In this document: positions 43,943-44,853 of the stretch, in pieces
Numbering within the stretch: the first letter of the stretch is position 1
How the letters are laid out: each line of letters begins with the position of its first letter
Assembly: GCA_965247995.1 (NCBI GenBank)
Contig: OZ252041.1
Location: 1,218,444-1,282,443, forward strand
Origin: Dehalococcoidia bacterium
GTDB lineage: Bacteria > Chloroflexota > Dehalococcoidia > UBA6926
Length of the DNA: 64,000 bases
Reading direction: 5' to 3'
Position numbers and translations under genes: made by a program
The notes under the pieces: model-generated
Seen by the model: only the letters and a program-made list of their open reading frames with translations
Database searches by the model: none
Told to the model about the DNA's origin: nothing

Positions 43943-44293
43943 GTGGCCACAACGTATACCGACATTAAGGCGTTCTATGACGACAACCGGGCCCGCCGGT
44001 TCTCGGGTGAAGCCGACTATGGGGTCTGGTGGGCGAACGGACCCGGCCGCTGGCGGTGGCGGGTGAGCTACATCGAGGCGACCGGCGAGGTCTATGCGGT
44101 GAACCGCGACACAGAGGGGCCGGTCGAAGTGTTAGGAATCGTGCCACCTGATCCACATGACCCAGGCGAGGTCTACTACGCGACTCTCGAATCGGTGCTT
44201 CACGGTTGGGCGGAAGGCGGGCCGAAAGACATCGCGTGGGCCCGGGAGCGAATACAGGCCTACTGGGCGGGGCCGATGGAGCGCGCGCTGTGA
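43943..44293 (+). CDS. Hypothetical protein (GTG start), coupled to downstream NTase
   Basis: Stop overlaps next start (GTGA). Confidence 0.3.
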   Translation: MATTYTDIKAFYDDNRARRFSGEADYGVWWANGPGRWRWRVSYIEATGEVYAVNRDTEGPVEVLGIVPPDPHDPGEVYYATLESVLHGWAEGGPKDIAWARERIQAYWAGPMERAL

Positions 44294-44853
44294 GCGGCGA
44301 GCGGTATGTCTTGGCTGCGGCCAGGGCAGTAGGCGCGCAGCTGGTGCGCCTGCTCGAACCGCATTGCAAGCGGATCGAGATTGCCGGTTCGATCCGGCGC
44401 CAGCGACCTGACGTCGGCGATATCGAGTTGCTGTGCATCTCGAAGGTGACGTCCGTCGCCGATCTGTTCGGGGACATTGCAACGAACTGCTACATGCTCG
44501 ACGAGGCGCTCGGGACGATCGTCGAGGACGCCACGGTGTTACAGAAACGGCTCGACAAGCGCGGCCGGGCGACCTTCGGCGAGCAGAACAAGCTCATGGT
44601 CCACGTCCCGTCTGGGATCCCCGTCGACGCGTTTAGCGCAACGGAGAAGAACTGGGGCATGAGTCGACTGGTGCGAACGGGGCCGCGCGAATTCAACGTC
44701 CGCGTCATGGCGCGATTCCGTGAGTTGGGGATGAAGGGTCACGCGTACGCCGGCGTGACGGACCCCGAGGGCAACGTGATCGCCTGCCCCGACGAGGAGA
44801 CGGTGTTCCGGCTGCTCGGATGGCCGTGGACGCCGCCAGAGGAGCGGGTATGA
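44290..44853 (+). CDS. Minimal DNA polymerase beta (Pol X) family nucleotidyltransferase, palm+thumb only
   Basis: GSIRRQRPDVGDIELL matches Pol X GS-x9-GDxD; thumb-like RTGPREFNVRVMARFRELG. Confidence 0.55.
   Translation: MSGERYVLAAARAVGAQLVRLLEPHCKRIEIAGSIRRQRPDVGDIELLCISKVTSVADLFGDIATNCYMLDEALGTIVEDATVLQKRLDKRGRATFGEQNKLMVHVPSGIPVDAFSATEKNWGMSRLVRTGPREFNVRVMARFRELGMKGHAYAGVTDPEGNVIACPDEETVFRLLGWPWTPPEERV

Follow-up and report, generated by a model that had tools for sequence, protein, structure and literature searches.

A palm-and-thumb family-X DNA polymerase core in an integrated element of a Dehalococcoidia bacterium, and the phage-borne family to which it belongs

The question raised by this locus is what a very short relative of DNA polymerase X (Pol X) does in the replication region of an integrated element. 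The element lies in a 64,000-nucleotide stretch of DNA from a Dehalococcoidia bacterium (contig OZ252041.1, positions 1,218,444 to 1,282,443; called the window here, with positions counted from its first nucleotide). The gene, termed minimal Pol X, occupies 44290-44853 on the plus strand. A first-pass annotation, made from the sequence alone, described the product as a stand-alone palm-and-thumb Pol X of about 188 amino acids (aa) without 8-kDa and fingers domains, and considered primer extension, gap filling, and toxin or signalling functions for it. Its coordinates stand, and the length is 187 aa plus a stop codon. We find that the protein is a family-X DNA polymerase core and that its family is large and phage-borne, not a curiosity. 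We consider it reasonably likely that the protein is an active stand-alone polymerase of a temperate-phage-like integrated element with a gap-filling role, a proposal in which activity, template use, substrate and role are all predicted from homology and gene context.

A family-X core of palm and thumb

The reading frame runs from a GTG codon at 44290 to a TGA codon at 44851-44853 (187 codons plus stop). Homologues that are 85-95% identical have N-termini and lengths (187-188 aa) that fit this start. The GC content at third codon positions (GC3) is 0.84 in this frame. A 95%-identical copy in the closest related locus, L048 (L048 5522-6085), differs at 27 nucleotides, distributed as 6, 7 and 14 over codon positions 1, 2 and 3, with 14 synonymous and 10 non-synonymous codons. 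Thus, GC3 and the substitution pattern identify the plus-strand frame as the coding frame. Antisense open reading frames (ORFs) at 43965-44477, 44132-44482, 44490-44708 and 44539-44742, all on the minus strand, were rejected as genes. They are high-GC shadows. What look like homologues of them elsewhere are nothing but the opposite strand of the conserved Pol X gene in those loci.

The Pfam thumb family PF14791 (DNA_pol_B_thumb) matches residues 127-186 over profile positions 3-62 of 63, and its score of 41 bits (E 1.8e-10) exceeds the cut-off of 25. The Pfam palm family PF14792 scores 17.1 bits, which is under its cut-off of 25, although some relatives exceed this value (for example P0233, with 28.3 bits). 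Despite the sub-threshold score, the palm is confirmed by structure and by an alignment, residue by residue, with Pol beta and with African swine fever virus (ASFV) Pol X. By single-sequence search (phmmer), the best solved relative is T. thermophilus PolX (ttPolX; 3au2, E 8.5e-8), with the GS...DxE segment and the thumb aligned. A profile built from A1, an alignment of 85 family members, matched structures in PDB with E values of 8e-11 to 3e-8, usually spanning residues 5-185 of the query. Each of the best 60 matches listed belongs to the family-X polymerases, being Pol lambda (E 8e-11), ttPolX, ASFV Pol X or Pol beta. No non-polymerase family claims the protein in this search, which the first-pass annotation had recommended together with structure prediction: non-polymerase nucleotidyltransferases (NTases) are absent from these 60 matches, and neither a Pfam NTase family nor a PADLOC model matches.

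An AlphaFold2 model computed from A1 has the Pol X fold, with a predicted local distance difference test (pLDDT) value of 95.2, a predicted template-modelling (TM) score of 0.89, and secondary-structure elements in the order palm, then thumb. When compared by using Foldseek with the ternary complex of ttPolX (3auo), the model gives a TM score of 0.76 and a root-mean-square deviation of 2.6 Å over 186 columns. Complexes of Pol lambda and Pol beta give TM scores of 0.70-0.75, and E values overall are 2e-12 to 9e-11. Among predicted viral structures, the closest are giant-virus Pol X proteins, including a 174-aa Harvfovirus protein (TM score 0.73, normalised on the target). With 346 homologues at E<=1e-3 and Foldseek E values near 1e-12, the homology is far beyond chance.

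About 30 residues precede the GS motif, and the protein closes with the thumb, whose last residue is 187. In Pol beta the alignment begins near residue 165-171, and in Pol lambda near residue 145. Because it begins there and the protein stops at the thumb, no room is left for 8-kDa, fingers or PHP domains, and none was found in the 187-aa protein by Pfam, by profile alignment or in the model. The protein reaches 19.2 bits with the NCBIfam PolX equivalog model, whose cut-off is 426. PF14791, the profile search, AlphaFold2 with Foldseek, and residue conservation agree that the protein is a family-X DNA polymerase core consisting of palm and thumb only, as the first-pass annotation had proposed.

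Residue equivalences were established by using hmmalign to place human Pol beta (1bpx_A) and ASFV Pol X (1jaj_A) on a hidden Markov model (HMM) of the family. The alignment covers ASFV residues ~22-173. The family-X motif hG[GS]-x9-13-Dh[DE]h is present as A32-G33-S34...D44-I45-E46-L47. Its letters, G33-S34-IRRQRPDV-G43-D44-I45-E46, correspond to GS-x8-GDIE, so the motif noticed in the first pass exists, but its spacing of nine holds only when residues are counted from S34 to D44. G33-S34 align with G179-S180 of Pol beta and G38-S39 of ASFV Pol X, R36-R37 with R182-R183 of Pol beta, and G43 with Pol beta G189. The predicted metal ligands D44, E46 and D113 align with D190, D192 and D256 of Pol beta and with D49, D51 and D100 of ASFV Pol X; the catalytic acidic residues are therefore retained on careful alignment, a point on which the first-pass annotation had made its reading depend. 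Equivalents of Pol beta K234, N279, P330 and R333 are K101, N136, P183 and R186. T130-G131 align with T273-G274 of Pol beta and T117-G118 of ASFV Pol X.

Conservation was counted among 148 representatives of 50%-identity clusters. D44, E46, S34 and R37 are each kept in 144, D113 in 147 (and in all 85 members of A1), K101 in 138 and N136 in 131. The palm-motif residues are retained in 141-144 representatives, except for G43 (107 of 148). R129 is present in 146, T130 in 147 and G131 in every one. As judged from these alignments, the near-invariance of the presumed catalytic and deoxynucleoside triphosphate (dNTP)-binding residues indicates selection for catalysis. Bacterial PolXs with inactivated sites have scattered variants of the catalytic triad and deletions in palm and fingers (PMC9226535), and the pattern in the minimal Pol X family is the opposite of this description. 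Prostova et al. (PMC9226535) count a PolX as canonical, and probably active, when it has three acidic residues, which are Asp or rarely Glu. Judged by its aligned residues, the minimal Pol X site is canonical according to this criterion.

The L048 copy has Cys at the otherwise invariant R37, whose Pol beta equivalent, R183, binds the triphosphate. This copy may be decaying, or the substitution may be a sequencing error.

The family and its nearest known polymerases

The 346 homologues were found in a 90%-clustered collection; nearly all are 165-205 aa long, metagenomic and without names, and a few JGI entries carry the automatic name "DNA polymerase (family X)". A profile search of 1.84 billion cluster representatives (50% identity) recovered at least 461 proteins at E<=1e-30, and the best 150 of these are nearly all 170-210 aa long. 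Contigs from one genome per species yielded 38 loci, all but a handful of them in metagenome-assembled genomes (MAGs) of Dehalococcoidia/Chloroflexota, often with two to five per genome. Relatives with 28-51% identity are found on 43 viral contigs in IMG/VR. Cultured phages gave no match when 50,697 GenBank phage records were searched with megablast (10 kb of DNA) and tblastn (the protein). PHROGs gave insignificant matches only, NCBIfam has no model for the family, and no exact match to the 187-aa protein is on record in the contig index. A full-text literature search found no paper on a minimal Pol X of phages or prophages. The first-pass remark that such proteins are poorly characterized is therefore apt.

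Dehalococcoidia MAGs that contain loci L010-L027 (for example, CBDFJT010000002.1, OZ252215.1, CBDFJV010000006/7.1) are genomes of 2-3 Mb with two to five prophage-like elements. Within one genome, Pol X copies are 94-100% identical in subgroups, and the DNA around them is mosaic, with blocks of 91-100% identity and with cassettes that have been swapped. The pattern suggests that multicopy genomes contain several related, co-resident elements that recombine. Transposition was rejected as the source of the two to five copies per genome, because mosaic flanks are typical of related co-resident prophages and not of identical transposed copies.

Family members that are longer than usual were considered as functional hints through domain fusion, but this line was dropped as too thin. 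Only one of ten, P0140 (403 aa), has an added domain, an HNH endonuclease N-terminal to the Pol X core; the other nine have unannotated extensions that are probably miscalled starts. In P0151 (423 aa), the palm (21-150) and thumb (358-422) are split by about 200 unannotated residues, which may be, for example, an intein or homing endonuclease.

ASFV Pol X (pO174L, 174 aa; 1jaj, 5hrb) offers the closest parallel in architecture, as it likewise consists of palm and C-terminal subdomain only, has nearly the same size and is virus-encoded. It shares the catalytic residues, the "TGP" motif and the Phe after the third Asp (F102, equivalent to F115). Its profile E values are 1e-9 to 4e-9, with only residues 108-185 well aligned, and its single-sequence E value of ~1 is not significant. 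ASFV Pol X has DxD, F116 and an isoelectric point (pI) of 10.0, whereas minimal Pol X has DxE, R129 and a pI of 6.8. A 5'-phosphate pocket (R125/T166/R168) and an H115-R127 platform belong to the ASFV enzyme and not to minimal Pol X. ASFV is a nucleocytoplasmic large DNA virus, whereas minimal Pol X belongs to a bacterial virus or integrated element in which no apurinic/apyrimidinic (AP) endonuclease or ligase was recognized adjacent to it. The family profile scores Pol lambda at 45 bits, ttPolX at 43, ASFV Pol X at 39-41 and Pol beta at 37-39. By sequence and superposition, minimal Pol X is about as near to PolX1, Pol lambda and Pol beta as it is to ASFV Pol X.

PolX1 (T. thermophilus 3au2/3auo; B. 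subtilis PolX) provides the best single-sequence match and superposition and has the same palm and thumb chemistry. However, PolX1 proteins are ~570 aa long and carry 8-kDa, fingers and PHP exonuclease/AP-endonuclease domains (PMC12926913). Because it has none of the three, minimal Pol X is not a PolX1. PolX2 (Timinskas et al. 2026; Streptomyces hawaiiensis A0A6G5RSZ6) is also without 8-kDa and PHP domains; its polymerase site is conserved, and it occurs in viruses and is uncharacterized (PMC12926913). PolX2 has an extra C-terminal alpha-helical domain, whereas minimal Pol X ends at the thumb and also lacks fingers. Without that helical domain, it is not PolX2 as defined in PMC12926913, and it is the published description of PolX2 that sets the two apart.

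Two further comparisons concern the catalytic core. The Faustovirus truncation s149FvPolX, which consists of palm and thumb, carries out efficient nucleotidyl transfer (PMC13252658). That construct is artificial, contains activating mutations and was assayed in a template-independent manner, whereas the minimal Pol X family is natural and conserved. The cores of human Pol beta and Pol lambda have the equivalent metal ligands, the GS..RR..G triphosphate motif, K234 and N279. Relative to them, minimal Pol X lacks the lyase and helix-hairpin-helix domains, has F115/R129 in place of R258/F272, and has Met in place of R283.

A survey of ~3000 complete bacterial genomes reported PolX1 and PolX2 only, and described family X as "rare" and of "low variability" (PMC12926913). 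What is new here is a natural minimal form with tailed-phage and integrated-element hosts (in Chloroflexota and others) and an active-site signature of its own; what was known is the family-X polymerase core. The finding is a sound homology-based annotation and no surprise in kind, but family size, absence from the literature and cultured-phage databases, and the distinctive active site make it worth biochemical follow-up. ASFV Pol X has hitherto been treated as the singular "minimal" polymerase, and here is an equally small natural family of at least 461 clusters, whose members reside in replication regions of tailed phages, prophages and integrated elements, chiefly of Dehalococcoidia. If active, these proteins would be a natural experiment on the minimum protein needed for a templated polymerase. 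They would also give a view of what temperate phages without a replicase must still synthesize themselves, and, for enzymatic DNA synthesis, a field that already uses engineered palm-and-thumb PolX truncations, would supply many compact scaffolds.

Proposed role and competing explanations

The gene lies 3' of a primase-helicase gene and of an iteron array that is probably the replication origin of the element, an arrangement that the first-pass annotation had described correctly. The closest relative, L048, is a 32-kb metagenomic contig that shares 91-97% identical blocks with the window, with swapped cassettes between them. Similarity to L048 reaches at least to 56.99 kb, and the unit "116 aa - Pol X - 96 aa" is one conserved block. 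Locus L047, with 69% identity, is a clear prophage with terminase and portal genes, and it encodes a PD-(D/E)XK nuclease, a DEAD helicase, a PriCT_2 primase, methyltransferases, minimal Pol X and ParB-like proteins. Other relatives reside near S24 repressors, AAA_25 ATPases (DnaB-helicase type), IstB/DnaC-like ATPases and integrases.

Neighbors within 10 kb on either side of the Pol X gene were counted by clustering ORFs from 91 loci. The commonest are N6/N4 methyltransferases (29 loci), which are often immediately adjacent and on the same strand. C5 methyltransferases are found in 18 loci, DEAD/ResIII helicases in 15, tyrosine integrases in 14 and DnaB helicases in 13. PD-(D/E)XK nucleases and PriCT_2 primases occur in 12 loci each, DnaC-like loaders, MazG proteins and S24 repressors in 10 each, and large terminases in eight. 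No family A or B polymerase is among the 25 Pfam families listed, of 45, for 74 large neighbor proteins from these loci.

Minimal Pol X is most likely a distributive, template-directed, proofreading-free gap filler for phage replication, recombination or repair. D44, E46 and D113 would hold two divalent metals, and S34, R36/R37 and G43 would bind the triphosphate of the incoming dNTP. K101 would contact the primer strand, and N136 would probe the nascent base pair on its minor-groove side. The strands that carry K101 and D113 are joined by only "VPSGIP", without a Loop1-like insertion. This short connection leaves no Loop1-like substitute for a template, which argues for template use; the template-blocking loop of terminal transferase would be absent. 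The enzyme would add one or a few templated nucleotides per event to a 3'-OH in a short gap or at a recessed end, and would do so without proofreading and without an 8-kDa domain that seeks the 5'-phosphate.

Such gaps would be filled during the element's own replication, recombination or repair, with bulk synthesis left to the host replisome. Candidate sources include Okazaki fragment or primer processing, recombination intermediates and base excision. A gap-filling role is suggested by gene order, as the gene follows the primase-helicase and iterons here and is found amid helicases, primases, nucleases and methyltransferases in relatives. The palm-and-thumb architecture is shared by ASFV Pol X, a repair polymerase that fills gaps (PMC5330486; PMC11646218), and the engineered palm-and-thumb truncation of Faustovirus PolX is still highly active (PMC13252658). 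By analogy with these two proteins, palm and thumb should be enough for catalysis.

Several observations weigh against this proposal. As second metal ligand, 144 of the 148 representatives have Glu and one has Asp, so that the usual form is DxE and not DxD, and Glu (E46) is unusual at this position for Pol X. Position 129 is Arg in the family, whereas it is Phe272 in Pol beta, Phe116 in ASFV Pol X and Leu259 in ttPolX. This invariant Arg would lie beside the sugar of the incoming nucleotide, and specificity for sugar or substrate could therefore differ. Position 115 is Phe, as in ASFV Pol X (Phe102), and corresponds to Arg258 of Pol beta. Because the positions equivalent to 115 and 129 are described as spatial neighbors in ASFV Pol X (PMC5330486), the R258/F272 pair of Pol beta appears to be inverted to F115/R129.

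Position 140, equivalent to Pol beta R283 and ASFV R127, is Met, Ala, Thr, Ile or Cys in 138 of the 148 representatives, and Arg is outside these five commonest residues. The Arg found there in Pol beta and ASFV Pol X has been called highly conserved in family X (PMC5330486). The 5'-phosphate pocket of the ASFV enzyme is not kept either, its equivalents being R138 (Arg in 51 of 148), P179 and T181. The protein has 25 Lys plus Arg against 25 Asp plus Glu, and the median pI of the family is 8.1. Because minimal Pol X is not basic, whereas the high pI of ASFV Pol X compensates for missing DNA-binding domains, it may bind DNA weakly when unaided and perhaps needs a partner. No flanking gene is conserved family-wide, so the pathway cannot be read from partners, and no AP endonuclease or ligase was recognized beside Pol X in the window. 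Taken together, near-neutral charge, the missing Arg283 equivalent, DxE and Arg129 leave room for a partner-dependent enzyme or for another sugar or end specificity.

One such alternative, which we regard as unlikely but the first to be considered, is a 3'-end extender that performs untemplated or minimally templated addition, possibly of ribonucleotides, to tail DNA ends or to extend primers before hand-off to the host replicase. The Faustovirus truncation is efficient in template-independent synthesis (PMC13252658). The missing template-contacting Arg (R283 in Pol beta) and the invariant Arg129, which takes the place of Phe272 next to the sugar of the nucleotide, are consistent with such an activity, as are the position of the gene directly after the primase-helicase and origin and the lack of a family A or B polymerase among the neighbor families listed. 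However, N136, the counterpart of the minor-groove reader N279 of Pol beta, is kept in 131 of 148 representatives, and there is no Loop1-like insertion to replace a template. The adjacent primase is of the CHC2/Toprim-DUF927, PriCT_2 or VirE-like type, or is missing, depending on the relative. A specific partnership with the primase is unlikely because the type varies in this manner.

We also consider, as an improbable extension of these ideas, that Pol X, at 21 kDa, might be the dedicated polymerase of a three-part minimal replicon, the other parts being the iteron origin and the primase-helicase. Its task would be to extend the primers made by the primase or to perform a separate synthesis step that the host replisome cannot, and DxE and Arg129 would be tuned to ribonucleotides, RNA-primed ends or another unusual substrate. 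If true, no natural polymerase linked to replication would be smaller, and enzymatic DNA synthesis would gain a new chassis.

It is quite improbable that the protein serves as a deliberately error-prone polymerase that mutagenizes phage or host DNA. ASFV Pol X is highly error-prone and has been tied to such "strategic mutagenesis" (PMC5330486), and minimal Pol X likewise has no proofreading domain and has lost, family-wide, the fidelity-linked Arg at the R283 position. However, the H115-R127 platform under the nascent pair, which is linked to dG:dGTP misincorporation in ASFV Pol X, is not kept (the equivalents are V128 and M140), and in the surroundings of the gene we saw no sign of diversity generation, such as template or variable repeats or a reverse transcriptase. 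This explanation differs from gap filling in purpose alone, the chemistry being equal.

The motif hG[GS]x9-13Dh[DE]h is common to the Pol beta-like superfamily, and its DxE form is common in non-polymerase members. The protein might therefore be a non-polymerase NTase (a toxin, signalling enzyme, or modifier of small molecules or proteins) that merely shares the fold, and its near-neutral charge and the presence of toxin-antitoxin and Fic genes in the same element could be cited in favor. We judge this to be very improbable. The C-terminal thumb is specific to Pol X and scores over the Pfam cut-off, all of the best 60 solved-structure matches listed are DNA polymerases, and residues at the primer and nascent pair (K234 and N279 in Pol beta) are conserved. 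In addition, no PADLOC defense or toxin model matches the protein, and no adjacent antitoxin-like partner is conserved family-wide. The toxin or signalling option raised in the first pass thus finds no support and is the least supported.

It is most improbable that the protein is a catalytically dead remnant, retained to bind DNA or as a structural component in the manner of the noncanonical bacterial PolXs. Bacterial PolX often has an inactivated polymerase site (27.5%; PMC9226535), and the L048 copy carries R37C. However, ~97% of the 148 divergent representatives retain the complete acidic triad and the dNTP-binding residues, the triad variants and palm or fingers deletions typical of inactive PolXs are not seen, and there is no second (PHP) domain to supply another activity.

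The host element and its other genes

Features of the minimal Pol X gene and its surroundings are collected in Table 1. Housekeeping genes (MrfA-like helicase, lspA, rluD-like pseudouridine synthase and gltX) stop at 36965. Genes of the element, mostly on the plus strand, begin at ~37.2 kb, after the transfer RNA (tRNA) gene, and the first encodes a helix-turn-helix (HTH) protein. No tyrosine integrase was found after tRNA-Asp, and no repeat of the 3' end of this tRNA (att) of at least 12 nucleotides occurs downstream inside the window. Terminase, portal and capsid genes were likewise not recognized in the window. Because of these absent genes and the absent att repeat, the element may be a cryptic prophage or another integrated replicon. 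The sole recombinase recognized in it is a small serine resolvase of 167 aa (52626-53129, plus strand). Scans for promoters, terminators and Rfam families produced nothing besides the tRNA.

Table 1. Coordinates of the minimal Pol X gene, its predicted functional sites and neighboring features in the window
Feature	Position	Strand	Evidence or remarks
tRNA-Asp	37115..37193	+	left border of integrated element; ARAGORN and Rfam
Primase-helicase, 902 aa	40723..43431	+	CHC2 zinc finger/Toprim/DUF927-type NTPase; Pfam, NCBIfam, PHROG
Iteron array ACTGGACTA	43449..43673	.	7 direct copies at 43449-43605, 3 tandem inverted copies (TAGTCCAGT) at 43645-43673; repeat search
Upstream gene, 116 aa	43943..44293	+	GTG start after AGGGAG; overlaps Pol X start by GTGA
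GGAG ribosome-binding site	44278..44281	+	8 nucleotides 5' of GTG start; read from sequence
Minimal Pol X gene	44290..44853	+	187 aa plus stop; palm ~residues 1-120, thumb ~121-187
Palm motif codons, G33-S34-I-R36-R37...G43-D44-I45-E46	44386..44427	+	two predicted metal ligands (D44, E46) and putative triphosphate-binding Ser/Arg/Gly
D113 codon	44626..44628	+	predicted third catalytic carboxylate; aligns with Pol beta D256, ASFV D100
V128-R129-T130-G131-P132...N136...M140 codons	44671..44709	+	counterpart of Pol beta YFTGS plus N279, R283 (hmmalign)
Downstream Cys-rich gene, 96 aa	44850..45140	+	ATG overlaps Pol X stop (ATGA)
MazG-like nucleotide pyrophosphohydrolase	45346..45891	+	PHROG pyrophosphatase 8.5e-35; Pfam MazG-like, PRA-PH
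N6/N4 DNA methyltransferase	46887..48719	+	Pfam N6_N4_Mtase 7e-42; cluster in 29 of 91 loci

The primase-helicase matches Pfam families just under their cut-offs, an NCBIfam dnaG domain at 1.5e-13 and PHROG DNA primase families at E values down to 2.3e-16. The iteron array is found directly 3' of its stop codon and in the lowest-GC kilobase of the region (0.58). Because it directly follows the primase-helicase gene, the array is probably the replication origin of the element. An ORF called across the array (43428-43757) is probably spurious.

Two paralogous small Cys-rich proteins without family annotation are encoded 5' of the primase (39317-39766 and 40009-40404, plus strand). They share the C-terminal motif "...C.DC.L......D.....V(D/N)(I/V)SVGLL(R/I)RLR". 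Homologues are found in at least nine other minimal Pol X loci, where they are located 3' of Pol X (for example, L001 10739-11137).

The first-pass annotation had reported GTGA overlaps with small genes on both sides of Pol X. The upstream overlap is indeed GTGA (44290-44293), but the downstream one is ATGA (44850-44853). Neither the upstream 116-aa protein nor the downstream 96-aa protein matches any family in Pfam, PHROG, NCBIfam or PADLOC. The 116-aa protein was rejected as an obligate partner, as it has 70 homologues, found in phage early regions, and three checked contexts have no recognizable Pol X. The 96-aa protein was rejected as a family partner, as no homologue occurs in 46 loci and it is kept with Pol X only in L048.

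MazG-like homologues are found near Pol X in 10-14 other loci. The methyltransferase gene is followed by further element genes encoding an ASCH protein, a DnaJ-domain protein, a dCTP-deaminase-like protein, the serine resolvase, a DUF1828 protein and a HigB/HigA-like pair. A Fic-domain protein (45888-46382), whose GTG start overlaps the MazG stop as GTGA, has weak matches to PADLOC SoFic and PDC-S04. The DUF1828 protein, with weak PDC-M24B matches, and its 179-aa upstream neighbor are encoded at 53478-54796, and a HigB-like toxin with an HTH antitoxin at 55497-56073. The cargo of the element may therefore include defense or addiction genes.

Farther downstream, a 1208-aa protein (58600-62226, minus strand) has long acidic and coiled-coil-like regions and ~11 tandem "TGEDITT(R/H)" heptads near its C-terminus, and it has no Pfam or PHROG match. 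The genes at 56280-57398 (plus strand) and 57428-58303 (minus strand) are unannotated, and the former is common to L048 at 74% DNA identity.

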